Shown here: positions 44,178 to 64,000 of the stretch, one piece after another | How positions within the stretch are numbered: the stretch's first letter is position 1 | Layout of the letters: each line of letters opens with the position of its first letter | NCBI RefSeq assembly: GCF_054482595.1 | Contig: NZ_CM137008.1 | Reading direction: 5' to 3' (one strand) | DNA: 64,000 bases | Notes under the pieces: generated by a model | What the model saw: the letters and a program-made list of their open reading frames with translations, nothing else | Databases searched by the model: none | Told to the model about the DNA's origin: nothing | Translations under genes and position numbers: made by a program

Positions 44178-44191
44178 ATCAATTCCTTTTG

Positions 44192-45115: not shown

Positions 45116-45701
45116 TCTGGCTAAAATCTATTGTTGGGGCTTTACTTACTGCGGCGACATCATCCGGTAAATAATTTTTCTTTGGCGTGTAATCCATGAC
45201 CTTTGCGGTTAATACAGCGGGGAATTTGCGGATAGTGACATTATATTGTTCAATGGCTTTAATATATCTTCCTCGCGCAACGGCAATTCTATTTTCACTT
45301 CCTTCGAGCTGTACCATTAAGTTTTGATAGAGTTCCTGAGATTTTAACTCAGGGTAACGCTCACTAATTATCGTTAACTGACCGAGAGTGCGAGTCACCT
45401 GCGCTTGAGCCTGTTGCCAGGCTTGTAATTTTTGTTCATCTCCCGGAGTTTGCTGAAGATCGCTACTGGCGCGATTAGCCTGGCTACGAGCCAATGTTAC
45501 GGCTTCCAGTACATCTCGTTCATGGCTGGAATAACCTTTAATGCTGGCGACAAGATTAGGAATAAGATCGGCGCGACGTTGATATTGATTCAATACCTCA
45601 GACCAGGAGGCGTTAACCTGCTCATCATAGGTTTGAATATCGTTATATCCACAGCCTGATAAATTGAAAATAAATATAATTACGATGAATATTCTGAGCA
45701 T
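45099..45701 (-). CDS. LemA-family protein (predicted lipoprotein)
   Basis: 200-aa ORF; N-terminal hydrophobic segment with lipobox LSGC; LemA-like helical region; first gene of the operon. Confidence 0.75.
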   Translation of the reverse strand: MLRIFIVIIFIFNLSGCGYNDIQTYDEQVNASWSEVLNQYQRRADLIPNLVASIKGYSSHERDVLEAVTLARSQANRASSDLQQTPGDEQKLQAWQQAQAQVTRTLGQLTIISERYPELKSQELYQNLMVQLEGSENRIAVARGRYIKAIEQYNVTIRKFPAVLTAKVMDYTPKKNYLPDDVAAVSKAPTIDFSQNANAH

Positions 45702-45873
45702 GTTTAAATCCCTTTTAATTAATTCCTTAAAACATAATACTCTGCTTCATTTTATTCTTTATGATCTAATCCACTTTTTGCCATAAACCTGCCTGTAACA
45801 GAATGTTAATAAGACATGATTGTTGTGGCAGGATCTGCAATAATTAACAATTATCCACTTCACAGAGAATGCT

Positions 45874-46545
45874 ATGCAGTACCCGATTAACGAGATGTTC
45901 CAGACCCTGCAAGGTGAGGGTTACTTTACCGGCGTCCCCGCCATTTTTATTCGTTTACAGGGATGCCCGGTTGGCTGTGCCTGGTGCGACACCAAACACA
46001 CCTGGGAAAAGCTTGAGGATCGGGAAGTCTCCCTTTTCAGCATTCTGGCGAAGACCAAAGAGAGTGATAAGTGGGGGGCGGCGAGCAGTGAAGACTTGCT
46101 GGCTGTCATTGGTCGCCAGGGATATACCGCGCGGCATGTGGTGATTACGGGTGGTGAGCCTTGCATTCATGATTTGCTGCCACTGACTGACCTGCTCGAA
46201 AAGAACGGTTTTAGCTGCCAGATCGAAACCAGTGGTACTCATGAGGTACGCTGCACACCGAATACCTGGGTTACCGTATCGCCAAAGCTGAACATGCGCG
46301 GCGGCTATGAAGTGTTGTCACAGGCACTGGAGCGAGCCAACGAAATCAAGCATCCAGTGGGGCGCGTACGTGATATTGAAGCACTGGATGAACTTTTGGC
46401 GACGCTGACCGATGATAAACCGCGAGTCATTGCACTGCAGCCGATTAGCCAAAAGGATGATGCCACACGTTTGTGCATTGAAACCTGCATTGCGCGTAAT
46501 TGGCGTTTGTCGATGCAAACCCATAAATATTTAAATATTGCCTGA
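45874..46545 (+). CDS. queE: 7-carboxy-7-deazaguanine synthase (radical SAM)
   Basis: 223-aa ORF MQYPINEMFQTLQGEGYFTGVPAIFIRLQGCPVGCAWCDTK (CxxxCxxC variant cluster). Confidence 0.9.
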   Translation: MQYPINEMFQTLQGEGYFTGVPAIFIRLQGCPVGCAWCDTKHTWEKLEDREVSLFSILAKTKESDKWGAASSEDLLAVIGRQGYTARHVVITGGEPCIHDLLPLTDLLEKNGFSCQIETSGTHEVRCTPNTWVTVSPKLNMRGGYEVLSQALERANEIKHPVGRVRDIEALDELLATLTDDKPRVIALQPISQKDDATRLCIETCIARNWRLSMQTHKYLNIA

Positions 46546-46699
46546 TTAAACATTTATAAGCGTTATAAATGGGTGGAACCTGTAAAGACTTCTACTCATT
46601 TATATTCTTTGTCGTCTCTGAAAAACCTCCATTTTGCCCATCCTGAACTAATCATTATCATTCTCTACAAATTCTGTGGCGTTAATTTTTCGCTGGAGT

Positions 46700-46883
46700 G
46701 AAAATTATTGCGGTAAAGTTTGGTAGATTTTAGTTTGTATAGAGTTATTTTAAATATTTACCTTTTTAATCAATTGGTTAAGTGCTCTTTAACATAATGG
46801 ATGTGTTGTTTGTGTGATACTGTAAAGTTGGTAGATTGTGACTGGCTTAAAAAATCATTAATTAATAATAGGTTATGTTTAGA
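46700..46883 (+). promoter_or_regulatory. CRISPR leader (AT-rich), ending ...aataataggttatgtttaga before the first repeat
   Basis: AT-rich non-coding sequence directly upstream of repeat 1; the degenerate repeat lies at the opposite end of the array. Confidence 0.7.
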
Positions 46884-47339
46884 GAGTTCCCCGCGCCAGC
46901 GGGGATAAACCGGCCTGGCGATTTCTCGTCAGGCCTTGCGGTGTGAGTTCCCCGCGCCAGCGGGGATAAACCGTCAGTAAAGCGGCGCCCACTGATATCG
47001 GATTAGAGTTCCCCGCGCCAGCGGGGATAAACCGAGGGGCAGGGAGTGACGCTGGAGCAGGCGATCGAGTTCCCCGCGCCAGCGGGGATAAACCGGGAAA
47101 TTAGGCAAATGTGAACACGGCGGCCCCGAGTTCCCCGCGCCAGCGGGGATAAACCGCCAGTATTTTGTCGTGGATTGCGGGATCACCAGAGTTCCCCGCG
47201 CCAGCGGGGATAAACCGTTGAGTTTGTTCGTAACAACGCGGGTCATCTGGAGTTCCCCGCGGCAGCGGGGATAAACCGGGTACAAAAGAGGCCCCATTCT
47301 GGCAGGGCTCAAGTTCCCCGCGCCAGTGGGGATAAACCA
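46884..47339 (+). CRISPR. Type I-E CRISPR array: 8 repeats of 29 nt, 7 spacers of 32 nt, no adjacent cas genes
   Basis: Repeat GAGTTCCCCGCGCCAGCGGGGATAAACCG at 46884, 46945, 47006, 47067, 47128, 47189, 47250 (one C-to-G variant) and degenerate terminal repeat aagttccccgcgccagtggggataaacca at 47311; exact 61-nt period. Confidence 0.95.
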
Positions 47340-47809
47340 CCATATAACCCGTTATCTCTTTCTCAAGTTTTTATATTAGCAGTACTCGTAATAAGCAACA
47401 TATCCACGTAACACCTCATGTTCAAAATAGTTCCCCATGCCAGATAAGTTCACAATTATCGATACAAAAAATCAAATTTAATCAAAGTGTTATTTGTATA
47501 ATCCTTAAACCGTTAAGAAATTTTAATGTATTATTTTTTTTAATATTAATTAATGCCTGTTAATTTTTTCTTTAGAATAACAGTGTGTTTTTTAAGCTTG
47601 TTATTCATTGATTAAGTAATAAATCTGGAAATTTGTCTTTGTTTTGAGGCTAATGAGTGGTTTTACATAACCGCCTCTATACGCTGTTGATGAATGGTTC
47701 TTATGAATAAAGATATCCAGTTCATACTTTAAGTGTAAATTGATAAAGTGCGATTCGTATTGTCTTTTATTCTAAAGACATCGAGTGTAGTTAATATTCC
47801 TTGTAAAAA

Positions 47810-47932
47810 CAGGGATAAACCGAACTAGTTAAAGTTTTTATTATGTTCCCTGCATCAGCGGGGATAAACCGGACTTGTTATCATTTTTTAAGTTGTCGAA
47901 CTTATGTTCCCCGCGTCAGCGGGGATAACCAT
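47810..47932 (+). CRISPR. Degenerate remnant CRISPR array (partial repeat, 2 degenerate repeats, one 32-nt spacer)
   Basis: cagggataaaccg (47810..47822), atgttccctgcatcagcggggataaaccg (47843..47871), 32-nt spacer, atgttccccgcgtcagcggggataaccat (47904..47932); a further repeat fragment agttccccatgccag lies near 47429. Confidence 0.75.
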
Positions 47933-47977
47933 TCAGGTATGTTCAGGCCGGGCTGTTTCCCGCCCGGCCTTCCTCAC

Positions 47978-49456
47978 TTACGCATTCGACCAGCTCTGGA
48001 TCGAATCCGCATTTCCCAATTCCCCATGCATCACTTCATACGATTTTTTCAGAATCACATCAGTATGTTTGGTTAGGTCTTTGAAAATGCCTTTATTCAT
48101 CGCGTCGTAGCGTTTGGCATTGCTCTCAATCGGTATAAAGATATCTTTCACGCGAACCATTTTATCGACAGCCGTTGCGTAATCCGGGTATAGCCCCAGA
48201 CCTACCGCTGTATTAATCGCTGCCCCCAGGCTTGCACAACCGTTAATGGCGTTACGTCGTGCCGGAAGGTTGAACACGTCGGCAAAAATCTGCATAAACA
48301 GATCGCTGTTCGAACCGCCGCCAGTAATGATTACATGCTTCGCAAAGTGATTCATTTCATTACACATATTGTCGTAATTGTTCTTCAGCGTCAGCGCCAC
48401 GCTTTCCAGTATCGAACGATATATCCATGCGTAATCCATGCTGGAATCAAAGCCGATCATAATCCCGCGTTTGTACGGTTCCCACGGATTGGTCAGCCAG
48501 TCCAGCACCGTCATCAGCCCATTACAGCCAGGTGGCACACTAGAGGCTTTCTTGTTGAGTAAATCTTCCGGTGAAAGATCCTGCGCCCTGGCATCCTGAA
48601 TTAACGACTCGCCTAACATGTCGCGCAGCCAGCTCACCGTCCACATGCCTTTGCGAATACCGTAACCTTCATACAGCAATGTTTGCGGAATAGAAGACAT
48701 AATCGGCCAGTACGCCACCGGATCTTTCGGCAAGGCTTTGCCGTTCATCATCAATGCGATGTAAGTGCCAAGAGAAATTACCGCAGTTTCATCATCCAGT
48801 AATCCGGCCCCCAGAGCTTCTACCGGTTTATCACTGGTGGTACAAACAACCGGCAGTCCTGCCGGGAAATGTGTCGCCAGTGCGGCTTGTGGTGTGATCT
48901 GTCCAAGGACGGTGCCAGGCATTTGCACATCAAACAGCATATGACGGGGGATATTAAACTTATCCATTACCGCAGCATCTTCACTCCATGCCCAGGTCTT
49001 ATAATCCACCGGCCACTGACCAAAATAGTTGGCGATATTGTCTTTAAACTCGCCGGTTAAGCGATGCGTCAGATAACCCGAAAAAGAGGTGACATAGGCC
49101 ACGTCAGGATTAGTGTGTTCGTAGGGACGCGTTACGCGTGCATCCTGCCAGCTAATCAATGGCGCAGCTGGCGTGCCATCGGCTTTCAATAACGCACGGC
49201 AGCAACGGATGGATCCCAGACCAATACCGACAATATCTTCTTTATTCCCGGCAAACTGACTCATCAAATCGTGACCGGCAAAACATAATGATGCCCATAA
49301 ATCGTCGTCAGGATGTTCTGCGGTATCGGCATCTGGCGTGTGCATCGGCTGCAATAAACCTTTGCCTTCGCAAACCACGTTACCTTCCAGATCGTACATC
49401 ACCACTTTTGTGCTCTGACTTCCGCCATCAATCCCTATGATGTATTTCTTCGACAT
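47978..49456 (-). CDS. ygcE: FGGY-family carbohydrate kinase
   Basis: 492-aa ORF MSKKYIIGIDGGSQSTKVVMYD; FGGY N- and C-terminal domains. Confidence 0.85.
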   Translation of the reverse strand: MSKKYIIGIDGGSQSTKVVMYDLEGNVVCEGKGLLQPMHTPDADTAEHPDDDLWASLCFAGHDLMSQFAGNKEDIVGIGLGSIRCCRALLKADGTPAAPLISWQDARVTRPYEHTNPDVAYVTSFSGYLTHRLTGEFKDNIANYFGQWPVDYKTWAWSEDAAVMDKFNIPRHMLFDVQMPGTVLGQITPQAALATHFPAGLPVVCTTSDKPVEALGAGLLDDETAVISLGTYIALMMNGKALPKDPVAYWPIMSSIPQTLLYEGYGIRKGMWTVSWLRDMLGESLIQDARAQDLSPEDLLNKKASSVPPGCNGLMTVLDWLTNPWEPYKRGIMIGFDSSMDYAWIYRSILESVALTLKNNYDNMCNEMNHFAKHVIITGGGSNSDLFMQIFADVFNLPARRNAINGCASLGAAINTAVGLGLYPDYATAVDKMVRVKDIFIPIESNAKRYDAMNKGIFKDLTKHTDVILKKSYEVMHGELGNADSIQSWSNA

Positions 49457-49482
49457 GATTTTTCTCCTGTAATTTTCCTGGC

Positions 49483-50760
49483 TTACTTGCTGCTAGCCAT
49501 TGCGGGGGCGCTATCAGCAGTACGAATTTTTTGGAACAGCAAAAAGGTAAAGACAATCACCATGGCAAGCGCCGCCATGCCCATCAGCCACATATTGCGG
49601 TAGGCTTCTGCTGCGGGCAGGGTGTCTTGCCAGTGGCCGATAATTGGGTAAACGAAGACATCCGGCAGGAATCCAATCACCGAGCAAATACCTACCGTGG
49701 TGCCCATAATGTAAGACGGTGTTCTCGCTTCGCCAGGGCAGGCCCAGTACAGCCCGCGTGAGGCGTAACAGGTGAATCCCAGCAGTAAAATCAGGCCAAT
49801 CCCCATCGCGACCGATTGCGGGTTAGAGTTCGTGACGAGCAGGGCAGTTAACGCCAGCAGGCCGAGTACGGAAAGGATTTGGATCACGCGGGTAGGGGAT
49901 TTCACTTTGCTGTAGGTGGTGATTATGCCGCCAAGTGGGCCGCACAGCGCGCGGAAGATTTTGTTGATCACAATCCCCATGTAGCTCGCCGCCACCAGCG
50001 ACATGCCGTACATTTCGGTCAGATAGTTGGTGGAGTAACTCAGAATGGCGTAGATGGTGAAGACACCAAAAATCACCATGCTGCAATACCAGGTGGTACT
50101 GATACGCAAAACGGCCAGGATATCGCTAAGCTGGAATGACTGTTTTTCTTCGTTATTGGCACTGCGCAGGTTGTTGTTATCGCTAACAAAAAACCAGCAC
50201 AGAAGCCCCAACAAGATGTAAACCACACTGTAGATGATAATGACCGTTTTCAGGCTGGCGCTGTCATCCGGTGCAAAGCGAGAAAAGACCCACATGGTAA
50301 ACACCGCCAGCGACATTACACCGACGCCGCGCAGCCCTTCCATCCAGCCCATAATTTTCCCTTGCTCGCTATGATCGCCAAGCAACGATGCGGCTTTAAT
50401 CGACACCGACCACAGCATTAAAATCGTCGTTATCGCAAAGGCGACCTGAATACAGAGCATTACCCACAGCGGTGGATACGTTGCCATTAACAGACCCAGT
50501 AATCCGGTAATGATCATCGCGGAAGTAATCATTTTGCGATGTGAGAATTTATCAGCAATAACGCCGCTGGGGGCATAAAGAATAATAGCTGCAATACCAA
50601 AGGTACTCATTATTAAACCTATCTCGGTATTGCTGAATCCCATAAATTTCGCCATGGGAATTTGATAAATATAACGTAAATAAGCCAGGTCGAAACTAAC
50701 GCCGCCGCTAAAACTAATTATCGCGAGGGTTATCCAACGGCGATATGAGTTGTGTTGCAT
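49483..50760 (-). CDS. yqcE: MFS transporter
   Basis: 425-aa polytopic ORF upstream of and co-oriented with ygcE. Confidence 0.85.
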   Translation of the reverse strand: MQHNSYRRWITLAIISFSGGVSFDLAYLRYIYQIPMAKFMGFSNTEIGLIMSTFGIAAIILYAPSGVIADKFSHRKMITSAMIITGLLGLLMATYPPLWVMLCIQVAFAITTILMLWSVSIKAASLLGDHSEQGKIMGWMEGLRGVGVMSLAVFTMWVFSRFAPDDSASLKTVIIIYSVVYILLGLLCWFFVSDNNNLRSANNEEKQSFQLSDILAVLRISTTWYCSMVIFGVFTIYAILSYSTNYLTEMYGMSLVAASYMGIVINKIFRALCGPLGGIITTYSKVKSPTRVIQILSVLGLLALTALLVTNSNPQSVAMGIGLILLLGFTCYASRGLYWACPGEARTPSYIMGTTVGICSVIGFLPDVFVYPIIGHWQDTLPAAEAYRNMWLMGMAALAMVIVFTFLLFQKIRTADSAPAMASSK

Positions 50761-50882
50761 ATCGTATTCCCATTTGTAATAGACAAAAAAAAGAGAAAAG
50801 TAAGCCGCCCTTTCAGGTGGATTACTTTTCTCAGGTCTCTAGTAATTGAAATAATAAATAACATGGAAAGCAGAGGTGTTGT

Positions 50883-50954
50883 GTGAGAGTAATCACGCTT
50901 CTGCTTTTTAAAACTATTTGATAATGCGAATATCACACTGTGATTACGATCACA
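50883..50954. promoter_or_regulatory. Two CRP-like boxes in the yqcE/ygcW divergent region
   Basis: tgtgaGAGTAAtcacg (50883..50898) and perfect TGTGAttacgaTCACA (50939..50954). Confidence 0.55.
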
Positions 50955-51008
50955 TTAGCAGTTATGCCCTTATGCTAAAAATTATCTCCAGTTACCAGAG
51001 ATAATGAG

Positions 51009-51054
51009 AAAGGTAACTTCCCTCTCGCGGGGGAAGTTACCTTTCTTTTTTTTT
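51009..51054 (+). terminator. Strong intrinsic-terminator-like hairpin in the ygcW leader (possible attenuator)
   Basis: aaaggtaacttccc-tctcgcgg-gggaagttaccttt (14-bp perfect stem) followed by cTTTTTTTTT; ends 25 nt before the ygcW start codon. Confidence 0.6.
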
Positions 51055-51078
51055 GCCTTACGGAAATTGGAGCTAACT

Positions 51079-51864
51079 ATGTCAATCGAATCTCTCAATG
51101 CGTTCTCAATGGATTTTTTCTCCCTGAAAGGTAAAACCGCAATTGTTACCGGCGGGAATAGCGGTTTAGGCCAGGCATTTGCCATGGCGTTGGCCAAAGC
51201 AGGCGCAAATGTCTTTATTCCTAGCTTCGTCAAAGATAACGGCGAAACAAAGGAAATGATTGAAAAACAGGGTGTTGAAGTTGATTTTATGCAGGTGGAT
51301 ATCACCGCAGAAGGCGCGCCGCAGAAGATTATCGCTGCTTGCTGTGAGCGTTTCGGAACAGTTGATATTCTGGTTAACAATGCCGGTATTTGTAAGCTGA
51401 ATAAGGTGCTGGACTTTGGTCGAGCCGACTGGGACCCGATGATTGATGTGAACCTGACCGCCGCATTCGAGTTAAGCTACGAAGCGGCAAAAATTATGAT
51501 CCCGCAGAAAAGCGGTAAAATTATTAATATCTGTTCATTGTTCTCTTACTTAGGTGGACAATGGTCACCTGCATATTCTGCCACTAAACATGCTCTTGCC
51601 GGATTCACCAAAGCTTATTGTGATGAACTAGGTCAATATAATATTCAGGTAAATGGTATCGCCCCTGGCTATTATGCAACAGATATTACGCTGGCGACAC
51701 GCAGTAATCCAGAAACCAATCAGCGCGTTCTTGATCATATTCCGGCAAACCGTTGGGGCGATACTCAGGATTTAATGGGCGCAGCCGTGTTTCTCGCAAG
51801 TCAGGCATCGAATTATGTCAACGGGCATTTATTAGTGGTCGATGGCGGTTATTTAGTGCGCTAA
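51079..51864 (+). CDS. ygcW: Short-chain dehydrogenase/reductase (KduD/FabG-like)
   Basis: ORF 51004..51864; start chosen at MSIESLNAFSM (261 aa) after RBS ggag; Rossmann motif TGGNSGLGQA; YxxxK catalytic motif (YSATK). Confidence 0.85.
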   Translation: MSIESLNAFSMDFFSLKGKTAIVTGGNSGLGQAFAMALAKAGANVFIPSFVKDNGETKEMIEKQGVEVDFMQVDITAEGAPQKIIAACCERFGTVDILVNNAGICKLNKVLDFGRADWDPMIDVNLTAAFELSYEAAKIMIPQKSGKIINICSLFSYLGGQWSPAYSATKHALAGFTKAYCDELGQYNIQVNGIAPGYYATDITLATRSNPETNQRVLDHIPANRWGDTQDLMGAAVFLASQASNYVNGHLLVVDGGYLVR

Positions 51865-51933
51865 CCCATAACGGTGGTTTCTGTTTTCTCTTATTAATGA
51901 TTATTCCATTTTTATTATCAGGAAGGAATTACT

Positions 51934-53388
51934 ATGTCTTTATCTCGCGCAGCGATTGTCGACCAGCTAAAGGAAATTGTTGGTGCAGATCGCGTAATTA
52001 CCGATGAAACAGTATTAAAGAAGAACAGTATTGACCGTTTTCGTAAATTTCCGGATATTCATGGCATTTATACTTTGCCGATTCCGGCAGCGGTCGTAAA
52101 ACTCGGTTCCACAGAACAAGTCTCCCGTGTGCTGAATTTTATGAATGCGCACAAAATTAACGGTGTGCCGCGTACCGGTGCTTCCGCCACCGAAGGTGGG
52201 CTGGAAACTGTTGTAGAAAACTCGGTGGTGCTCGACGGCTCCGCCATGAATCAAATCATTAATATTGATATTGAGAATATGCAGGCGACGGCGCAATGTG
52301 GCGTTCCCCTGGAAGTGCTGGAAAACGCGTTGCGTGAAAAAGGTTACACCACGGGGCATTCTCCGCAGTCAAAGCCGCTGGCGCAGATGGGCGGCCTGGT
52401 AGCAACCCGCAGTATCGGGCAGTTCTCCACACTCTACGGCGCAATCGAAGATATGGTCGTTGGTCTGGAAGCAGTATTGGCTGATGGCACCGTCACACGC
52501 ATTAAAAACGTGCCACGCCGCGCGGCTGGCCCGGACATTCGTCACATCATCATCGGCAACGAAGGTGCATTGTGCTATATCACTGAAGTAACAGTGAAAA
52601 TCTTTAAATTCACCCCGAAAAACAACCTCTTCTACGGCTATATCCTGGAAGACATGAAAACCGGCTTCAACATCCTGCGTGAAATCATGGTGGAAGGGTA
52701 TCGTCCGTCGATCGCTCGTTTGTATGACGCTGAAGATGGCACCCAACACTTCACCCATTTTGCCGACGGAAAATGTGTGCTGATCTTTATGGCTGAAGGT
52801 AACCCTCGCATTGCGAAGGCGACGGGCGAAGGGATTGCGGAAATCGTTGCCCGCTACCCGCAGTGCCAGCGCGTGGACAGCAAACTGATCGAAACCTGGT
52901 TTAACAACCTGAACTGGGGACCGGATAAAGTGGCTGCCGAACGTGTGCAAATCCTCAAAACCGGCAACATGGGCTTTACCACTGAAGTGTCCGGCTGCTG
53001 GAGCTGCATCCACGAAATCTACGAAAGCGTTATTAACCGTATTCGTATCGAGTTCCCGCACGCCGACGACATCACTATGCTGGGTGGTCACTCCTCTCAT
53101 AGCTATCAGAACGGCACCAACATGTACTTCGTCTACGACTACAACGTTGTCAACTGTAAGCCGGAAGAGGAAATCGACAAGTACCACAATCCGCTCAACA
53201 AAATCATCTGCGAAGAAACCATTCGCCTCGGCGGTTCGATGGTGCACCACCACGGCATTGGTAAACATCGCGTTCACTGGAGCAAGCTGGAACACGGCAG
53301 CGCGTGGGCGTTGCTGGAAGGGCTGAAAAAGCAATTCGATCCTAACGGCATTATGAATACGGGTACTATCTATCCGATTGAAAAATAA
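51934..53388 (+). CDS. ygcU: FAD-linked oxidoreductase (FAD-binding PCMH type)
   Basis: 484-aa ORF MSLSRAAIVDQLKEIVGADRVITDE. Confidence 0.85.
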   Translation: MSLSRAAIVDQLKEIVGADRVITDETVLKKNSIDRFRKFPDIHGIYTLPIPAAVVKLGSTEQVSRVLNFMNAHKINGVPRTGASATEGGLETVVENSVVLDGSAMNQIINIDIENMQATAQCGVPLEVLENALREKGYTTGHSPQSKPLAQMGGLVATRSIGQFSTLYGAIEDMVVGLEAVLADGTVTRIKNVPRRAAGPDIRHIIIGNEGALCYITEVTVKIFKFTPKNNLFYGYILEDMKTGFNILREIMVEGYRPSIARLYDAEDGTQHFTHFADGKCVLIFMAEGNPRIAKATGEGIAEIVARYPQCQRVDSKLIETWFNNLNWGPDKVAAERVQILKTGNMGFTTEVSGCWSCIHEIYESVINRIRIEFPHADDITMLGGHSSHSYQNGTNMYFVYDYNVVNCKPEEEIDKYHNPLNKIICEETIRLGGSMVHHHGIGKHRVHWSKLEHGSAWALLEGLKKQFDPNGIMNTGTIYPIEK

Positions 53389-53481
53389 TGTGTCAGGCAG
53401 CGTTCCGCGATGATGGGGCGTTGCCTTTTCGGCTTCTCAGGCGAGAAGCCGTTCTTATTACCGGACAATGAAGGGGTAAAG

Positions 53482-54819
53482 ATGAACACTTCACCGGTGC
53501 GAATGGATGATTTACCGCTTAACCGTTTTCACTGTCGAATTGCTGCGCTCACTTTCGGCGCACACCTGACCGACGGTTATGTTCTCGGCGTCATTGGTTA
53601 CGCCATTATTCAACTTACGCCCGCCATGCAACTGACGCCGTTTATGGCGGGAATGATCGGCGGCTCGGCGCTCCTTGGTTTGTTTCTTGGCAGCCTGGTT
53701 CTTGGGTGGATCTCCGACCATATTGGTCGGCAAAAAATCTTCACCTTCAGCTTTTTGCTGATTACGCTCGCTTCGTTCCTGCAATTTTTTGCCACCACGC
53801 CAGAGCATCTTATTGGACTGCGCATTTTGATCGGCATTGGTCTGGGAGGCGATTACTCAGTAGGTCACACCTTGCTGGCTGAATTTTCCCCGCGCCGCCA
53901 TCGCGGTGTTTTGCTGGGCGCATTCAGCGTGGTGTGGACCGTAGGCTATGTGTTAGCAAGTATTGCCGGACATCACTTTATTAGCGAAAGCCCGGAGGCC
54001 TGGCGCTGGCTGCTGGCATCGGCAGCTATGCCCGCGTTGTTGATTACGTTATTACGCTGGGGAACGCCAGAATCGCCACGCTGGCTACTGCGCCAGGGGC
54101 GTTTTGCAGAAGCTCACGCTATCGTGCATCGCTATTTTGGTCCCCATGTTTTACTGGGCGATGAAGTGGCAACGGCGACCCATAAACACATCAAAACCTT
54201 GTTCTCTTCGCGCTACTGGCGGCGCACGGCGTTTAACAGCGTCTTCTTTGTCTGCCTCGTAATCCCATGGTTTGTGATTTATACCTGGCTGCCAACTATC
54301 GCCCAGACTATTGGTCTAGAAGATGCGCTGACTGCCAGCCTGATGCTTAATGCGTTGTTAATTGTGGGCGCGCTGCTGGGATTAGTTCTGACGCACCTGC
54401 TGGCACATCGCAAATTTTTGCTGGGAAGTTTTTTGCTGCTGGCGGCAACGCTGGTAGTAGTGGCCTGTTTGCCTTCCGGCAGTTCATTAACGCTGCTGCT
54501 TTTTGTTCTCTTCAGCACCACCATTTCGGCAGTCAGTAATCTGGTGGGCATTTTGCCTGCGGAAAGTTTTCCTACTGACATTCGCTCGCTGGGCGTCGGT
54601 TTTGCCACCGCCATGAGCCGGTTGGGCGCGGCGGTAAGTACTGGCCTGCTGCCGTGGGTGCTGGCGCAGTGGGGAATGCAAGTTACCTTATTGATCCTGG
54701 CGGCAGTGTTGTTGGTTGGTTTTGTTGTGACCTGGCTATGGGCACCAGAAACCAAAGCACTCCCGCTGGTGGCGGCGGGAAATGTAGGAGGTGCGAATGA
54801 ACATTCTGTTAGCGTTTAA
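53482..54819 (+). CDS. ygcS: MFS sugar transporter
   Basis: ORF 53410..54819; start chosen at MNTSPVRMDD (445 aa); polytopic. Confidence 0.8.
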   Translation: MNTSPVRMDDLPLNRFHCRIAALTFGAHLTDGYVLGVIGYAIIQLTPAMQLTPFMAGMIGGSALLGLFLGSLVLGWISDHIGRQKIFTFSFLLITLASFLQFFATTPEHLIGLRILIGIGLGGDYSVGHTLLAEFSPRRHRGVLLGAFSVVWTVGYVLASIAGHHFISESPEAWRWLLASAAMPALLITLLRWGTPESPRWLLRQGRFAEAHAIVHRYFGPHVLLGDEVATATHKHIKTLFSSRYWRRTAFNSVFFVCLVIPWFVIYTWLPTIAQTIGLEDALTASLMLNALLIVGALLGLVLTHLLAHRKFLLGSFLLLAATLVVVACLPSGSSLTLLLFVLFSTTISAVSNLVGILPAESFPTDIRSLGVGFATAMSRLGAAVSTGLLPWVLAQWGMQVTLLILAAVLLVGFVVTWLWAPETKALPLVAAGNVGGANEHSVSV

Positions 54820-55576
54820 AGCCGAACCGGATGCCGGAATGCTGGCGGAAAAAGAGTGGCAGGCGGCGGCTCAGGGTAATAGCGGACCGGATGTTTCGCT
54901 ACTGCGAAGTTTACTCGGTGCTGATGAACAGGCTGCCGCCGCGCTGCTGTTGGCGCAGAGAAAAAACGGTACGCCGATGTCTTTAACCGCGTTGAGCATG
55001 GGGGATGAACGGGCGTTACACTGGCTGCGCTATCTCATGGCTCTTGGGTTTGAGGAAGCTGTATTGCTGGAGACGGCGGCAGATCTGCGCTTTGCGTCGG
55101 AATTTGTCGCTCGCCATATTGCCGAATGGCAGCGTCAGAATCCGCTGGATCTGATAATTACCGGCTGCCAAAGCAGCGAAGGGCAGAATGGGCAAACGCC
55201 ATTTTTGCTGGCGGAAACGCTGGGCTGGCCCTGCTTCACCCAGGTGGAGCGTTTCACTCTCGACGCGCTGTTTATCACCCTCGAACAGCGTACTGAACAT
55301 GGGCTGCGCTGTTGCCGGGTTCGCTTGCCTGCGGTGATTGCCGTGCGCCAGTGCGGTGAAGTGGCCTTGCCAGTACCGGGAATGCGCCAGCGAATGGCTG
55401 CGGGGAAAGCGGAAATTATCCGTAAAACTGTTGCTGCCGAATTGCCAGCGATGCAGTGTCTGCAACTGGCAAGAGCAGAGCAACGACGCGGAGCGACGCT
55501 GATTGATGGGCAAACGGTAGCAGAAAAAGCGCAAAAGCTATGGCAGGACTATTTACGCCAAAGGATGCAGCCATGA
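54797..55576 (+). CDS. ygcR: Electron-transfer-flavoprotein beta-subunit-like protein
   Basis: ORF 54791..55576; start chosen at MNILLAFKAEPDAG (259 aa); overlaps ygcS 3' end. Confidence 0.8.
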   Translation: MNILLAFKAEPDAGMLAEKEWQAAAQGNSGPDVSLLRSLLGADEQAAAALLLAQRKNGTPMSLTALSMGDERALHWLRYLMALGFEEAVLLETAADLRFASEFVARHIAEWQRQNPLDLIITGCQSSEGQNGQTPFLLAETLGWPCFTQVERFTLDALFITLEQRTEHGLRCCRVRLPAVIAVRQCGEVALPVPGMRQRMAAGKAEIIRKTVAAELPAMQCLQLARAEQRRGATLIDGQTVAEKAQKLWQDYLRQRMQP

Positions 55577-56433
55577 ATATCGCAATTGTGACAATAAATC
55601 AGGAGAATGCCGCAATAGCAAGCTGGCTGGCGGCGCAGGATTTCAGCGGTTGTACCCTGGCGCACTGGCAGATTGAACCTCAGCCCGTAGTGGCGGAACA
55701 GGTGCTGGATGCGCTGGTGGAACAGTGGCAGCGAACGCCTGCGAACGTTGTTCTCTTTCCGCCGGGAACGTTTGGCGATGAACTGTCGACCCGGCTGGCC
55801 TGGCGTTTACATGGTGCAAGCATCTGCCAGGTGACTTCGTTAGAGATTCCAACCGTAAGCGTGCGCAAATCCCACTGGGGAAATGCGCTAACGGCGACGC
55901 TGCAAACAGAAAAACGCCCGCTATGCCTTTCCCTGGCGCGTCAGGCGGGAGCAGCGAAAAACGCCACGTTGCCCTCTGGAATGCAACAACTGAACATTGT
56001 CCCGGGTGCGCTTCCGGACTGGCTGGTTAGCATAGAGAACCTGAAAAATGTTACCCGCGACCCATTAGCTGAGGCCAGACGGGTGTTGGTGGTGGGGCAG
56101 GGCGGAGAGGCAGATAACCAGGAAATCGCTATGCTGGCAGAAAAGCTGGGAGCCGAAGTGGGCTACAGTCGGGCGCGAGTGATGAACGGTGGCGTTGATG
56201 CTGAAAAAGTGATTGGTATTTCCGGACATCTGCTGGCACCTGAGGTGTGTATTGTTGTTGGCGCTTCTGGCGCAGCAGCGTTAATGGCGGGCGTACGCAA
56301 TAGCAAGTTTGTGGTGGCGATTAATCATGACGCCAGCGCAGCGGTATTTTCACAGGCAGATGTTGGCGTGGTTGATGACTGGAAAGTGGTGCTGGAGGCA
56401 CTGGTGACAAACATTGACGCAGATTGCCAATAA
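55573..56433 (+). CDS. ygcQ: Electron-transfer-flavoprotein alpha-subunit-like protein
   Basis: ORF 55540..56433; start chosen at MNIAIVTINQ (286 aa); C-terminal FAD-binding region. Confidence 0.8.
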   Translation: MNIAIVTINQENAAIASWLAAQDFSGCTLAHWQIEPQPVVAEQVLDALVEQWQRTPANVVLFPPGTFGDELSTRLAWRLHGASICQVTSLEIPTVSVRKSHWGNALTATLQTEKRPLCLSLARQAGAAKNATLPSGMQQLNIVPGALPDWLVSIENLKNVTRDPLAEARRVLVVGQGGEADNQEIAMLAEKLGAEVGYSRARVMNGGVDAEKVIGISGHLLAPEVCIVVGASGAAALMAGVRNSKFVVAINHDASAAVFSQADVGVVDDWKVVLEALVTNIDADCQ

Positions 56434-56437
56434 CGTG

Positions 56438-56548
56438 TTGCCGGATGATCCTGCCTACGGTTCTGGACTGGGGACCTGTAGGCCTGATAAGACGCGTTAA
56501 GCGTCGCATCAGGCGCTGAATGTCGGATGTGGCGTGCGGCCTACAAAT
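56438..56548. repeat. REP/BIME cluster between convergent ygcQ and ygcP
   Basis: gccggatgatcctgcctacgg, tgtaggcctgataagacgcgttaagcgtcgcatcaggcgc, gtcggatgtggcgtgcggcctaca. Confidence 0.7.
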
Positions 56549-56580
56549 CAAACCAAATTCAATTGGTTACGATTATCCCG

Positions 56581-57156
56581 TCAAAGCAATTTTTTCGCTA
56601 ACGTCCAGACTCCGGTATTCGTGGTGGAAAGCGCCACGACACCCGCGTTAATCGCATTACGCGCATCTTCTTCATCGCATACCAGCCCGCCAGCAATCAG
56701 CGGTTGGCGGATTTTTTCCGTCACCCAGCCCAGCACTTTGGGCATGCAGCCTGGCAGGATCTCAATACAATCCGGATTCGATTGCGCAACTTGCTTATCA
56801 ATGTTGTGAAACGAAATCGAATCAACAATAAACAGGCGATGAATACAGAAAAAACCTTCCGCTCTTGCCGCTTTCAACATTGAGGCTTTGGTACTGATAA
56901 TGCCGTCCGCCTCGGTCACCAGTTTCAAAAACTGAATCACGACTTCTTTATTTGACGCGCCTTCCAGCAAATCAACATGAATAAAAGCATATTTCCCGGC
57001 GTTCTTAATCTTTTTAACGATATTACTGATGGTGCAGATATTGCCGTACAACACGGAAATAAACTGGCATTCAGAGTCGATTGCCAGTTGTAGGCTGGCA
57101 TTATCTTTAACGGCAGCAATCACCGGATTCTGGCGGAGCAGGTGTAAGAGGGGCAT
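56581..57156 (-). CDS. ygcP: GlpP-like (glycerol-3-phosphate-responsive antiterminator family) protein
   Basis: 191-aa ORF MPLLHLLRQNPVIAAVKDN; last gene of the ygcN-ygcO-ygcP minus-strand unit. Confidence 0.8.
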   Translation of the reverse strand: MPLLHLLRQNPVIAAVKDNASLQLAIDSECQFISVLYGNICTISNIVKKIKNAGKYAFIHVDLLEGASNKEVVIQFLKLVTEADGIISTKASMLKAARAEGFFCIHRLFIVDSISFHNIDKQVAQSNPDCIEILPGCMPKVLGWVTEKIRQPLIAGGLVCDEEDARNAINAGVVALSTTNTGVWTLAKKLL

Positions 57157-57172
57157 AAATTATCCTTATTAT

Positions 57173-57433
57173 TTATCCAAAACGGTAGGTGATGCCGAAT
57201 CCGGAAGGCGGATAGCGCCACTGTTGTAGTGTTGATTCGTCGCACAGCAAACGGCAGGTGCCACACTCCAGGCAACTGCGATAGTCAATACGTAAGTCAC
57301 CTTCCGGTGTGAGCGAAAAAAGACCTGCCGGACAGGCGTTAATCAACCGTTCTGCCGTCTGGCGCTCAACGGAGTCAGCCGGAACAATATGTGGCGCATC
57401 AGCAGCGCGCCAGAGATTACGGGCTACAGACAT
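57173..57433 (-). CDS. ygcO: Ferredoxin-like protein (FixX-like)
   Basis: ORF 57173..57469; start chosen at MSVARNLW (86 aa); Cys cluster CLECGTCRLLC. Confidence 0.75.
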   Translation of the reverse strand: MSVARNLWRAADAPHIVPADSVERQTAERLINACPAGLFSLTPEGDLRIDYRSCLECGTCRLLCDESTLQQWRYPPSGFGITYRFG

Positions 57434-58695
57434 CGCAGACTCCTGATAACGTCGCCCGCCAGATGCCACAGGCCGTGACGACGTAAATGACGCCAGAATA
57501 ACTGGCGCAGCGGTGGAACAGGTTTATCACCCTGATCCCATAAATCGCGGGAAATATCCTGCATTAACGCAGGCCACGCCCAATACCAGCCAGGGCGTTG
57601 CAAAAGCGCCGGAACATGCTGATAACGCTGTAGAACATCCCACAGCAGGCTGCGCTCGACGTTGTGATGATAAAGCGGAAACAGATTTTGCGGCTCGCAG
57701 TGCTGGCAGGCGCTTATCAGCGTTTGTGCCGCCGCCTGTGCGCCAGTCAGCGCCATATCCATGCCGCGCACGGAGATTCCGGTATTGACGCAACTGCGTA
57801 ACGCATCGCCCACCAGCAGCCAGCCGTTACCGGCGTATTGCACTGGCATACTGTGCAAGCCACCTTCTGGCACCAGATGCGCACCATACTCCAGTGATTC
57901 CGTGTTTTTGATAAGCGGGCGCACTGCCGGATACGTTTTAAAGCGAGCCAGCAGCTCGCTTGCCGGAACACGACTTTGCGTAAGGGAAGAGAGCGGGCAA
58001 ACAATCCCTAACGAGAGCGTTTGTTGATTAGTATAAAGAAATGCGCCGCCGGGAAAGTCATCACAGATTCCGCCGCTGAACAGCAACGCTGCGCCTTCGT
58101 TATTCTCCAGATGAAAACGTTCTTCAATAGCGGATGTTTCCAGCGACAGCACTTCTTTGATCCCCAACGCCATCGCTTCGCCAGCAGGACGAGTCACTAA
58201 TCCGTGACGTTCAGCCAGGACGCTGTTGGCACCTTCTGCCAGCACCACATAACGGGCGCGGAGAATATCGTCACCACAAATGACACCACACACTCTGCCG
58301 TTTTCTTCATACAGTGCATCCACCGTCGCTCCGGGGATACATTCGACACCTTCTTTTTCGGCTTCGGCAACCAGCCACGGATCGAACCGTGCACGTAATA
58401 CACTCCAGGATTCACCGCCGGGCTGTAAGCTGGAAAACGTCGTTGCGCCATCCGGCGTTAACAGGGAAAGGCTTTCGTGAGTGATGCGTCGTTCAAGAGG
58501 CGCGGTCAGATGAAACTGAGGGAGGAGTTCCGCGAGTGCATGGGTATATAACCGCCCGCCGGAAAGATTTTTGCTGCCGGGGATTTCAGCGCGTTCCAGT
58601 AACAAAACGGATAAACCCGCTCGCGCGCAGCGTAACGCGCAAGCGGTGCCTGCAATACCGGCACCAATAATAATAATGTCGCAGTCGTCTTCCAT
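57424..58695 (-). CDS. ygcN: FAD-dependent oxidoreductase (FixC / ETF-QO-like)
   Basis: ORF 57424..58725; start chosen at MEDDCDIIIIGAGIAG (423 aa); dinucleotide-binding motif. Confidence 0.8.
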   Translation of the reverse strand: MEDDCDIIIIGAGIAGTACALRCARAGLSVLLLERAEIPGSKNLSGGRLYTHALAELLPQFHLTAPLERRITHESLSLLTPDGATTFSSLQPGGESWSVLRARFDPWLVAEAEKEGVECIPGATVDALYEENGRVCGVICGDDILRARYVVLAEGANSVLAERHGLVTRPAGEAMALGIKEVLSLETSAIEERFHLENNEGAALLFSGGICDDFPGGAFLYTNQQTLSLGIVCPLSSLTQSRVPASELLARFKTYPAVRPLIKNTESLEYGAHLVPEGGLHSMPVQYAGNGWLLVGDALRSCVNTGISVRGMDMALTGAQAAAQTLISACQHCEPQNLFPLYHHNVERSLLWDVLQRYQHVPALLQRPGWYWAWPALMQDISRDLWDQGDKPVPPLRQLFWRHLRRHGLWHLAGDVIRSLRCL

Positions 58696-58772
58696 GTCAT
58701 GCCCCAGATATCCTGAACACAACACCCTAACATAGCGTTACTTAAGGGAAATTGACCGCCGACACACTCTTA

Positions 58773-59138
58773 TCATTCGCCGCGATAGATACAACCAGCG
58801 GTGCAGGTTTCTTTTACCATCACCGCACTTAACAGCGGCACAACGGGTTTAACCTGATCCCAAATCCATTTTGCTAAAACTTCGCTGGTCGGGTTTTCCA
58901 GACCTGGAATATCATTGAGATAATGGTGATCGAGGCGCTCATAAGTTGGCTTAAACGCCGCTTTCAGTTCAGCGAAATCGATAATCCAGCCCGTATGCGG
59001 ATCGACTTCCCCGGTAATTTCCAGTCGCACCATAAAGGAATGCCCGTGCAGGCGACCACATTTATGCCCTTCCGGGACGTGTGGTAAGCGGTGAGCGGCT
59101 TCGAAGGTGAAATCTTTAAATAACGTGGTGGACATCAT
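58773..59138 (-). CDS. queD: 6-carboxy-5,6,7,8-tetrahydropterin synthase
   Basis: ORF 58773..59222; start chosen at [19 protein letters not shown] (about 121 aa); His-motif HGHSF. Confidence 0.85.
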
Positions 59139-59453
59139 AATTTCTCTACAGGACGATAAAACCGCCGTAGAGTACCGGAAAGGCTGTTTTTTCGCATTAT
59201 CTAAAACGACTTTGTTGCGCAAAATCGCTGATTTATCTTAATGATTGGCTAAATTCATTTGTTTTTCATTAGGTTGGTTAATCTATTTTGTTGTTAAAGA
59301 CTATTGCTAAAACAGGTTAGTCGATTTGGTTATTAGTTATCGCTATCCCGTCTTTAATCCACACCGTTCACCCCGTTAACCTTACCTTCTCTTCTGTTTT
59401 ATGGGCGCTGACAGGGCGCAGAAACAGCTTTGCTTACTGGAACATAACGACGC

Positions 59454-61253
59454 ATGACGACACAGGTCCCACCTTCCGCGTTGCTTCCGTTGAACCCGGA
59501 GCAACTGGCACGCCTTCAGGCGGCCACGACCGATTTAACTCCCACCCAGCTTGCCTGGGTTTCTGGCTATTTCTGGGGCGTGCTCAATCAGCAGCCTGCT
59601 GCGCTTGCAGCGACGCCAGCGCCAGCCGCAGAAATGCCGGGTATAACTATTATCTCTGCTTCGCAAACCGGCAATGCGCGCCGGGTTGCTGAAGCATTAC
59701 GCGATGATTTATTAGCAGAAAAACTGAACGTTAAGCTGGTGAACGCGGGCGACTATAAATTCAAACAAATCGCCAGCGAAAAACTGCTCATCGTAGTGAC
59801 GTCAACGCAAGGGGAAGGGGAACCGCCGGAAGAAGCCGTCGCGCTGCATAAGTTCCTGTTCTCCAAAAAAGCGCCGAAGCTGGAAAATACCGCTTTTGCC
59901 GTGTTTAGCCTCGGCGATAGTTCTTATGAATTTTTCTGCCAGTCCGGGAAAGATTTCGACAGCAAGCTGGCGGAACTGGGCGGTGAACGCCTGCTCGACC
60001 GTGTCGACGCCGACGTTGAATACCAGGCTGCTGCCAGCGAGTGGCGCGCCCGCGTGGTTGATGCGCTTAAATCGCGTGCGCCTGTCGCGGCACCTTCGCA
60101 ATCCGTCGCTACTGGCGCGGTAAATGAAATCCACACCAGCCCGTACAGCAAAGACGCGCCGCTGGTGGCTAGCCTCTCTGTTAACCAGAAAATTACCGGG
60201 CGTAACTCTGAAAAAGACGTTCGCCATATCGAAATTGACTTAGGTGACTCGGGCCTGCGCTATCAGCCGGGCGACGCGCTGGGCGTGTGGTATCAGAACG
60301 ATCCGGCACTGGTGAAAGAACTTGTCGAACTGCTGTGGCTGAAAGGCGATGAAACTGTCACCGTTGACGGCAAAACGCTGACCCTGCGCGAAGCGCTACA
60401 GTGGCACTTCGAACTGACGGTTAACACCGCCAATATCGTTGAGAACTATGCCACGCTTACCCGCAGTGAAACGCTGCTGCCGCTGGTGGGCGATAAAGCG
60501 AAGTTGCAGCATTACGCCGCGACCACGCCGATTGTCGATATGGTGCGTTTCTCTCCGGCACAGCTTGATGCTGAAGCGCTGATTAACCTGCTGCGCCCGC
60601 TGACGCCGCGCCTCTATTCCATCGCCTCATCGCAGGCTGAAGTGGAAAGTGAAGTGCACGTCACCGTTGGTGTCGTTCGTTATGACATTGAAGGCCGCGC
60701 CCGTGCGGGTGGTGCCTCCAGCTTCCTCGCGGACCGCGTGGAAGAAGAGGGTGAAGTCCGCGTCTTTATCGAACATAACGATAACTTCCGCCTGCCCGCT
60801 AACCCGGAAACCCCGGTGATTATGATTGGCCCAGGCACCGGTATCGCGCCGTTCCGCGCCTTTATGCAGCAACGTGCTGCCGATGAAGCACCGGGTAAAA
60901 ACTGGCTGTTCTTTGGCAACCCGCATTTTACGGAAGATTTCCTCTACCAGGTGGAGTGGCAGCGCTACGTCAAAGAGGGTGTGCTGACGCGGATCGATCT
61001 CGCCTGGTCGCGCGATCAAAAAGAAAAAGTTTACGTACAAGACAAACTGCGCGAACAGGGCGCGGAGCTGTGGCGCTGGATCAATGACGGTGCCCACATT
61101 TATGTCTGCGGCGACGCTAATCGCATGGCGAAAGACGTTGAGCAGGCACTTCTGGAAGTGATTGCCGAATTTGGTGGCATGGACACCGAAGCGGCGGATG
61201 AATTTTTAAGTGAGCTGCGCGTAGAGCGCCGTTATCAGCGAGATGTCTACTAA
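59454..61253 (+). CDS. cysJ: Sulfite reductase [NADPH] flavoprotein alpha subunit
   Basis: 599-aa ORF with flavodoxin and FNR-like domains; stop overlaps cysI start. Confidence 0.93.
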
Positions 61254-62965
61254 TGAGCGAAAAACATCCAGGGCCTTTAGTGGTTGAAGGAAAACTGACA
61301 GACGCCGAGCGCATGAAGCTTGAAAGCAACTACCTGCGCGGCACCATTGCGGAAGATTTAAACGACGGCCTGACCGGCGGCTTTAAGGGCGATAACTTCC
61401 TGCTGATCCGCTTCCACGGCATGTATCAGCAGGATGACCGCGACATCCGCGCCGAACGTGCTGAACAGAAGCTGGAGCCGCGCCACGCGATGCTGCTTCG
61501 CTGTCGTCTGCCGGGGGGAGTGATTACCACTAAACAGTGGCAGGCGATCGACAAATTTGCCGGTGAAAACACCATCTATGGCAGCATTCGCCTGACCAAC
61601 CGCCAGACGTTTCAGTTCCACGGCATTCTGAAAAAGAACGTCAAACCGGTGCACCAGATGCTGCACTCGGTCGGTCTTGATGCGCTGGCGACCGCTAACG
61701 ACATGAACCGTAACGTACTCTGCACCTCGAACCCTTACGAGTCGCAGCTGCACGCAGAAGCGTACGAGTGGGCGAAGAAAATCTCTGAACATCTGCTGCC
61801 TCGTACCCGCGCGTATGCGGAGATCTGGCTCGATCAGGAAAAAGTCGCCACCACTGATGAAGAACCGATCCTCGGCCAGACCTACCTGCCGCGTAAATTC
61901 AAAACCACGGTAGTGATCCCGCCACAGAACGATATCGATCTGCACGCCAACGACATGAACTTCGTGGCGATCGCCGAAAACGGCAAGCTGGTGGGCTTTA
62001 ACCTGTTGGTGGGCGGTGGGCTTTCTATCGAACACGGCAACAAGAAAACCTACGCCCGCACGGCGAGTGAGTTTGGCTATCTGCCGCTAGAGCATACGCT
62101 AGCGGTGGCGGAAGCCGTCGTGACAACTCAGCGTGACTGGGGTAACCGAACCGATCGTAAAAATGCCAAAACCAAATACACGCTGGAGCGAGTGGGAGTT
62201 GAGACGTTTAAAGCGGAAGTGGAGCGTCGCGCGGGGATCAAATTTGAACCGATCCGTCCGTATGAGTTCACCGGACGTGGAGATCGTATTGGCTGGGTTA
62301 AGGGCATTGATGATAACTGGCACCTGACGCTGTTTATCGAAAATGGTCGCATCCTTGATTATCCGGGGCGTCCGCTGAAAACCGGCCTGCTGGAGATCGC
62401 GAAGATCCACAAAGGTGATTTCCGCATTACGGCGAACCAGAATCTGATCATCGCCGGTGTGCCGGAAAGCGAGAAAGCGAAGATCGAGAAGATCGCCAAA
62501 GAGAGCGGGTTAATGAATGCCGTCACGCCGCAGCGTGAAAACTCAATGGCCTGCGTCTCGTTCCCGACTTGCCCGCTGGCGATGGCGGAAGCGGAGCGTT
62601 TCCTGCCGTCTTTTATCGACAACATCGATAATTTAATGGCGAAACATGGTGTCAGCGATGAGCATATCGTGATGCGTGTAACAGGCTGCCCGAACGGTTG
62701 TGGTCGCGCGATGCTGGCGGAAGTGGGCCTGGTGGGTAAAGCGCCGGGTCGCTACAACCTGCATCTTGGCGGCAACCGTATTGGGACACGTATCCCACGG
62801 ATGTATAAAGAAAACATCACCAAGCCGGAAATCCTGGCGTCGCTTGATGAACTGATAGGGCGCTGGGCGAAAGAGCGCGAAGCGGGTGAAGGCTTCGGCG
62901 ACTTTACGGTGCGTGCGGGCATCATTCGCCCGGTGCTCGATCCGGCGCGCGATTTGTGGGATTAA
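61253..62965 (+). CDS. cysI: Sulfite reductase [NADPH] hemoprotein beta subunit
   Basis: 570-aa ORF; sirohaem/Fe4S4 Cys motifs ([18 protein letters not shown]). Confidence 0.93.
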
Positions 62966-62980
62966 CCATCAGCCCGGTCT

Positions 62981-63018
62981 TGTAGGCCTGATAAGACGCG
63001 TGAGCGTCGCATCAGGCA
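62981..63018. repeat. REP element between cysI and cysH
   Basis: tgtaggcctgataagacgcgtgagcgtcgcatcaggca, nearly identical to the REP unit at about 56478. Confidence 0.7.
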
Positions 63019-63038
63019 AGGCAAACAGTGAGGAATCT

Positions 63039-63773
63039 ATGTCCAAACTCGATCTAAACGCCCTGAACGAACTGCCGAAGGTAGATCGCATTCTGGCGCT
63101 GGCGGAAACTAACGCCCAACTGGAAAAACTGGACGCTGAAGGCCGCGTAGCCTGGGCGCTGGATAATCTGCCCGGTGAATATGTGCTTTCTTCCAGCTTC
63201 GGCATTCAGGCGGCGGTGAGCCTGCATCTGGTGAATCAGATTCGCCCGGATATTCCAGTGATCCTCACCGATACCGGTTACTTGTTCCCGGAAACCTACC
63301 GCTTTATCGATGAGTTAACGGACAAACTCAAGCTCAACCTGAAAGTGTACCGTGCTACCGAAAGCGCAGCCTGGCAGGAAGCACGCTACGGAAAACTGTG
63401 GGAACAGGGCGTTGAAGGCATTGAAAAGTACAATGACATCAACAAAGTCGAACCGATGAACCGGGCGCTGAAAGAACTTAACGCGCAAACGTGGTTTGCT
63501 GGCCTGCGCCGTGAACAATCCGGCAGCCGCGCCAATTTACCGGTGCTGGCAATTCAGCGTGGCGTATTTAAAGTGCTGCCGATTATCGACTGGGATAACC
63601 GAACGATATATCAGTATCTGCAAAAGCATGGCCTGAAATATCACCCATTATGGGACGAAGGATATTTATCGGTGGGCGATACCCATACAACCCGTAAATG
63701 GGAACCCGGCATGGCGGAAGAAGAAACGCGTTTCTTTGGCTTAAAAAGGGAATGTGGGTTACACGAAGGGTAA
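63039..63773 (+). CDS. cysH: Phosphoadenosine phosphosulfate (PAPS) reductase
   Basis: ORF 62886..63773; start chosen at [15 protein letters not shown] (244 aa) after RBS gaggaa; C-terminal ECGLH motif. Confidence 0.92.
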
Positions 63774-63782
63774 ATATTGCCG

Positions 63783-63822
63783 GATAAATTAAACGCCTCT
63801 GTCAGAAATGATGGGGGCGTTT
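63783..63822 (+). terminator. Probable intrinsic terminator after cysH
   Basis: aaacgcctc...gggggcgtttttatttt hairpin plus T-run. Confidence 0.5.
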
Positions 63823-64000
63823 TTATTTTGCGAGCAGCATTCCTGATTTTAAACGTGAACGCCGCTGGAAGAATTATCAGGTATAGAATGGCGTCGGGTG
63901 CTTGAGGCTGTCTGGCGTTAAGCATTCGCGAGGTTCCAGATGGACAAAAGCCCCAGGCGATATTTCTATCAACCTGAGGCTCGCGTTCGAACGTAGCAAT

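Follow-up and report, generated by a model that had tools for sequence, protein, structure and literature searches.

The last 227 bases (positions 63774-64000) of the window, by which is meant the whole 64,000-nt stretch of DNA under analysis, begin directly after cysH, the gene that closes the cysJIH operon. cysH ends with a TAA stop codon at 63771-63773, with cysJ and cysI upstream. A hairpin begins 18 bases 3′ of this stop, spans 63791-63822 and is followed by TTTTTATTTT. This site (63791-63830) has the make-up of a Rho-independent terminator: a GC-rich hairpin and a T-run placed directly after the last gene of an operon. It was the sole terminator-like site that a terminator scan returned in the last kilobase, its predicted fold reaches -20 kcal/mol (z = -4.57 against shuffles), and an alignment of K-12, IAI1 and XH990 leaves it unchanged. 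Several weak Rfam matches at 63729-63831 (ctRNA_p42d, Spot 42, PyrR and PyrG leader) all fell far under their gathering scores and were rejected because they reflect the terminator hairpin only. Further upstream, the cysI-cysH spacer holds a REP-type palindrome, GCCTGATAAGACGCG...CGTCGCATCAGGC, at 62985-63026, where Rfam naRNA4 scores 33.6 and 23.2 bits on the two strands, below its gathering score of 59.5.

The initial annotation described the last 180 bp after the cysH terminator as non-coding. The roughly 170 nt 3′ of the terminator do lack a protein-coding gene, since they carry only mechanical open reading frames (ORFs) of 40-42 amino acids and no RefSeq coding sequence is annotated there in genomes that are 100% identical. 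These frames (42 amino acids on the plus strand, 40 on the minus strand), as well as one of 94 amino acids antisense to cysH, were discarded as unannotated in identical genomes. However, the segment is occupied by the leader of a hok-family toxin mRNA, hokX, and by a small RNA gene, sokX, so the description holds for proteins and fails for RNA. The features are collected in Table 1.

Table 1. Features at the 3′ end of the window, with the CRISPR array discussed in the text
Feature	Positions in window	Strand	Basis
cysH (PAPS reductase), last gene of cysJIH	63039-63773	+	ORF and RefSeq annotation in identical XH990 (L001 13640-14374)
cysJIH intrinsic terminator: 14-bp hairpin (63791-63822) and T-run	63791-63830	+	Terminator scan, RNA fold
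Putative hokX -10 box, TAGAAT	63884-63889	+	Alignment; 7 nt upstream of leader 5′ end
hokX mRNA 5′ leader (tac element GGGTGCTTGAGG, mok-like start, Sok target hairpin), cut by window end	63896-64000	+	Rfam RF01794
mok-like short frame, 18 codons, then TAG (63994-63996)	63940-63996	+	Sequence reading
sokX small antisense RNA gene (orphan antitoxin), ~58 nt	63940-63997	-	K-12 b4701 (2887353-2887411), mapped via alignment
Type I-E CRISPR array, queE-ygcE, 8 repeats, 7 spacers	46884-47339	+	Pattern search, TRF

The hokX leader was recognized by an Rfam scan, in which family RF01794 matched with 67.5 bits (gathering score 59, E = 2.4e-14) up to the window end, which cuts the match. The element is complete in strain XH990, whose segment L001 corresponds to the window as window x = L001 x + 49399, identity of the overlap having been checked base by base; at full length (L001 14497-14652) it scores 97.5 bits. 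The leader opens on the plus strand with the typical GGGTGCTTGAGGC, contains the tac element and Sok target hairpin of a hok leader, and runs on to a hok ATG at window-equivalent 64037-64039, 39 nt beyond the window end. As a control for strand, the K-12 hokC/sokC locus was scanned as well. There, the RF01794 match lies on the same strand as hokC and mokC, stops at the start codon of hokC and is antisense to sokC as annotated, so the family is a model of the hok mRNA leader. RF01794 is named 'sok antitoxin', yet its matches (L007 502-654; window 63896-64000) represent the hok sense strand, antisense to sokC and sokX, and strand calls taken from the family name are therefore misleading. Within the leader, the mok-like frame closes early at its TAG in the window allele and does not couple translation into hok; in IAI1 the frame runs on to a TGA that overlaps the hok ATG.

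On the opposite strand lies sokX, which the K-12 MG1655 annotation lists as an ncRNA gene (b4701) between cysH and cas3. The predicted SokX fold comprises a free 5′ tail, a long terminator hairpin and a U-run (-23.7 kcal/mol, z = -4.05). By this fold and the mapping from K-12, SokX has the form of a Sok RNA, namely an antisense RNA encoded in cis, in which a single-stranded 5′ tail precedes a terminator hairpin. We know of no target of SokX. A sigma-70 consensus scan of 63000-64000 and of the full spacer found no convincing promoter on the relevant strands, so the promoters of both RNAs are proposed from alignment with hokC and from reading of the sequence. For hokX, the TAGAAT at 63884-63889 aligns with a TATAAT upstream of the K-12 hokC leader and may serve as its -10 box. 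A candidate sokX promoter lies just past the window end (TTGCCT, a 17-nt spacer and TAACAT on the minus strand of L001). SokX would be expected to be expressed in the source strain; in K-12 it was detected in all tested conditions, without differential expression (bioRxiv 10.1101/2024.06.20.599902).

Complete genomes that match the window were used to follow the locus past position 64000. Window positions 44000-64000 are matched at ~100% identity by 12-14 complete genomes, among them XH990 and THO-010. It is this 20-kb match, strain-specific CRISPR spacers included, that ties the window to the XH990 group, the last 601 nt being insufficient for the purpose. Those 601 nt are also 100% identical in FDAARGOS_944, a more distant genome with an intact hok and without adjacent cas genes. 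In FDAARGOS_944 (L010 870-3217), an intact Hok/Gef gene (WP_000956460.1) comes after the 601-nt stretch, and then two IS4-family elements and lysS; the cas region is missing there or has moved, probably through an IS-mediated rearrangement. A 1400-nt probe, made of 400 nt common to the window and XH990 and the next 1000 nt of XH990, was 100% identical in 13 genomes, and all 13 carry cas3 directly downstream.

In XH990 and THO-010, cysH is followed by a 357-nt spacer and a type I-E CRISPR-Cas locus in the order cas3, casA, casB, cas7e, cas5e, cas6e, cas1e, cas2e, CRISPR array and iap. The cas3 ATG falls at window-equivalent 64131, which is 357 nt past the cysH stop and 131 nt past the window end. 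The proposal that a type I-E cas operon begins just beyond the window, to be checked by extending the sequence, is thus borne out in these genomes, where the sequence past 64000 holds cas3, casA-E, cas1e, cas2e, the array and iap. Judging from the genomes identical over the last 20 kb, the source genome would likewise carry cas3 after the window end, and its expected continuation is of the XH990 type (...TTCGGATGTTAGTCTCTTCTTTGCAGGGAGGCAAGACATGTGTATATCACTGTAA..., with the cas3 ATG at 64131).

Between the leader and cas3, the spacer changes character abruptly. When the spacers of the window, XH990, K-12 and IAI1 are aligned, near-identity extends to ...GGCAAGACATG (...GGGAGGCAAGACATG), after which there is no similarity. 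Homology ends with the last base of the hok ATG (window-equivalent 64039), and cassette-specific sequence starts at 64040. In XH990 and K-12, which represent the window type, only four codons separate the ATG from a stop (MCISL*), and no Hok/Gef toxin ORF of ~50 amino acids (PF01848) is found or annotated 3′ of the leader. In IAI1, O157:H7 DEC4E and PMV-1, the same ATG opens a 50-amino-acid ORF that encodes one identical Hok/Gef protein, WP_000956458.1, which matches Pfam PF01848 with E = 5.7e-10 in IAI1. Beyond this hok gene lies a different cas3 gene in IAI1 and O157:H7 DEC4E, and no cas genes in PMV-1 (B2). The HokX protein (L003 12265-12417, L004 4265-4417, L006 4264-4416) is thus identical across three differing downstream arrangements, which suggests that the chromosomal toxin is under purifying selection where it survives.

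The loss extends to the 3′ end of the toxin mRNA. In hok mRNAs, tac-fbi pairing is the complementarity of the 5′ and 3′ ends. IAI1 has a corresponding inverted repeat, GGGTGCTTGAG / CTCCTGCACCC, which matches the leader 5′ end with a 3′ element 332 nt apart. Within the window-type spacer, no such partner for the leader 5′ end was found. With both the toxin ORF and fbi lost, SokX is left as an antitoxin RNA without its toxin.

These arrangements differ greatly in frequency among complete E. coli genomes. The cysH 3′ end, terminator and leader occur together in 5,414 of 5,426 genomes. The K-12-type junction with cas3 is found in 1,092 of 5,425, K-12 and the window lineage included. The hokX ORF region is present in 4,221 genomes, with ~4,200 of the 5,426 carrying an intact 50-amino-acid Hok gene, and a few genomes have IS insertions at the locus (e.g. 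IS1 in PSJ-42). The literature already places a sixth hok locus, hokX (hok-5/hokX), in the cysH-iap region (PMC7232551), and hok and sokX have been reported to adjoin cysH in 90% of UPEC strains, K-12-like strains having only sokX there (PMC12736100).

The Sok 5′ region and target loop come in two main alleles, CTCGCGTTCGAACGTAG-CAATTCGG in the window versus CCAGCGTTCGAACCCAAACAATTCGA in K-12. The window allele (CGTAG-CAATTCGG; window 63975-64000, L001 14551-14640) occurs exactly in ~1,005 genomes, some of them O157:H7 strains whose hok is intact, and the allele shared by K-12 and IAI1 in ~4,170. The TAG of the window allele closes the mok-like frame also where hok is retained. The features that set the Sok 5′ region apart from K-12, this TAG among them, could be read as decay that set in once the toxin was lost; this reading was discarded because the same 90-nt allele is found exactly in ~1,005 genomes, many with an intact hok. 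That the window combines this O157-like sokX allele with a K-12-type cas cassette suggests recombination within the spacer.

Positions 63774-64000 very probably belong to a K-12-type E. coli chromosome and make up the first 227 nt of its 357-nt spacer between cysH and cas3; we hold this explanation with high confidence as a whole. The terminator hairpin ends cysJIH transcription, and the next element is a hokX/sokX relic without its toxin. Because hokX is present, with an identical protein, in lineages that carry the other cas variant as well as in those that lack cas genes, it would be the ancestral occupant of the site. The K-12-variant cas cassette would then have replaced the toxin ORF, fbi and whatever came after, this direction of replacement being one that we infer, and SokX would persist as an orphan antisense RNA. 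The arrangement itself is ordinary and is already described in the literature and in the K-12 annotation.

One elaboration of this history is co-option of the relic. Read-through from the hokX promoter into cas3 would give the nuclease gene a long, structured 5′ UTR that pairs with SokX, so that SokX and RNase III could modulate cas3. As no terminator-like site is predicted on the plus strand from the leader start to the cas3 ATG, hokX-promoter transcripts could, speculatively, reach cas3 and pair with SokX. For the 244-nt RNA from leader to cas3, folding predicts strong structure (z = -3.85), K-12 contains SokX constitutively, and the promoter and leader are equally conserved in hok-less and hok-bearing genomes. 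Yet conservation over so short a distance is expected anyway from within-species identity, and a study of the cas3 promoter puts the promoter and its CRP site close to the ORF (PMC7019758). Overexpressed SokX also had no effect in a screen for biofilm and motility phenotypes, in which CRISPR was not among the traits scored (PMC4606813). Co-option is accordingly considered very unlikely; if true, it would connect the level of the CRISPR nuclease with an orphan antitoxin RNA.

Another proposal, made in the initial annotation, is that the window ends in the cas3 promoter region, the last 180 nt being plain spacer with a regulatory role for that gene. It is true that the first gene beyond the window is cas3, which starts 131 nt past its end, and that no terminator is predicted from 63831 to the cas3 ATG. 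However, published data point to a promoter elsewhere. A footprinted CRP site, TATGAGCAGCATCGAA, and a predicted promoter occupy -38 to -66 relative to the cas3 ORF (PMC7019758). The CRP site corresponds to L001 14665-14680, or window-equivalent 64064-64079, and with the predicted promoter takes up ~64064-64094, so both lie outside the window. They belong to the 91 nt from 64040 to cas3 that are specific to the K-12-variant cassette. If a GATAAT at window-equivalent 64101-64106 serves as the -10 box, cas3 transcription would start at about 64113. The sequence up to 64039 is, by contrast, 93-100% identical in genomes without a K-12-type cas3 or without any cas genes, where it precedes hok, and both a curated RNA family and an annotated ncRNA gene map to 63896-64000. 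A promoter role for these 180 nt is thus very unlikely. Least tenable is the idea that hokX/sokX still works as a toxin-antitoxin pair in the source strain. In its favour, the leader, the Sok target hairpin and sokX show no damage, and O157:H7 and ~1,000 other genomes carry this allele together with an intact hok. In all 20-kb-identical genomes, however, a stop comes only four codons after the hok ATG, the annotation lists no Hok/Gef ORF and fbi is missing, so that this idea, for which we see almost no chance, is refuted for an XH990-type continuation.

The cas genes beyond the window also bear on the CRISPR array within it, which lies between queE and ygcE. Its repeat, GAGTTCCCCGCGCCAGCGGGGATAAACCG, gave eight matches in a pattern search, with none expected by chance. 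The last two repeats (47250-47339) are degenerate, with one and three mismatches; degenerate repeats are usual at the leader-distal end of an array. The array had been placed ~16 kb from its cas partner, across the ygc island and cysJIH. Both points agree with the genomes inspected, as 16.8 kb separate it from the cas3 ATG and ygcE, yqcE, ygcW/U/S/R/Q/P/O/N, queD and cysJIH lie between. The accompanying view of the array as an orphan does not hold in a functional sense, because it carries the same type I-E repeat as the cas-adjacent array.

The adaptation gene cas1e is damaged in the genomes closest to the window. Relative to K-12, cas1e of XH990 (L001 22179-23095) has a 1-nt deletion after nt 440, and the gene is annotated as a frameshifted pseudogene in all three genomes inspected: XH990, THO-010 (L008 8468-9384) and 88COLEC (L009 9702-10618). 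No intact cas1 was found in these three. The window lineage can probably not acquire spacers, and its interference genes look intact. In 88COLEC, which over the last 20 kb of the window scores 36924 bits versus 36930 for exact matches, an ISVsa5 (IS4-like) element lies inside cas3 (L009 917-4921).

For annotation, the correct label for 63774-64000 is therefore the cysJIH terminator followed by a hokX/sokX relic, not the cas3 promoter. More broadly, the comparison shows that the type I-E cas cassette, which is exchangeable in E. coli, has its left border precisely at the start codon of hok, so that presence or absence of the Hok ORF provides a simple marker of which cas variant, or none, a strain carries. 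In K-12-type strains cas3 sits directly behind a constitutively transcribed antisense pair.

The locus can be compared with several known systems. Intact hokX/sokX loci, as in IAI1, O157:H7 and B2 strains such as PMV-1, share the terminator, promoter region, leader and sokX at 93-100% identity up to the hok ATG. They differ in keeping the 50-amino-acid Hok ORF (PF01848), a mok-like frame that ends at the hok start, and fbi, whereas the window lineage lacks all three. Plasmid R1 hok/sok and chromosomal hokC (gef)/sokC have the same leader architecture (tac element GGGUGCUUGAGGC and Sok target hairpin), a cis-encoded antisense RNA with a terminator hairpin, and membership of the same Rfam family. 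Unlike in these systems, post-segregational killing or control of a toxin cannot operate in the window lineage, as no toxin is present. The K-12-variant type I-E locus (cysH-cas3-casABCDE-cas1-cas2-array-iap) has the same gene order and repeat in the closest genomes; it lies outside the window, and cas1e of those genomes is frameshifted by the 1-nt deletion. A close counterpart is sokX (b4701) of K-12 MG1655, which has another allele than the window in the Sok 5′ region and target loop and resembles it in position, in strand relative to cysH and cas3, in the breakpoint after the hok ATG and in the 91-nt segment upstream of cas3.
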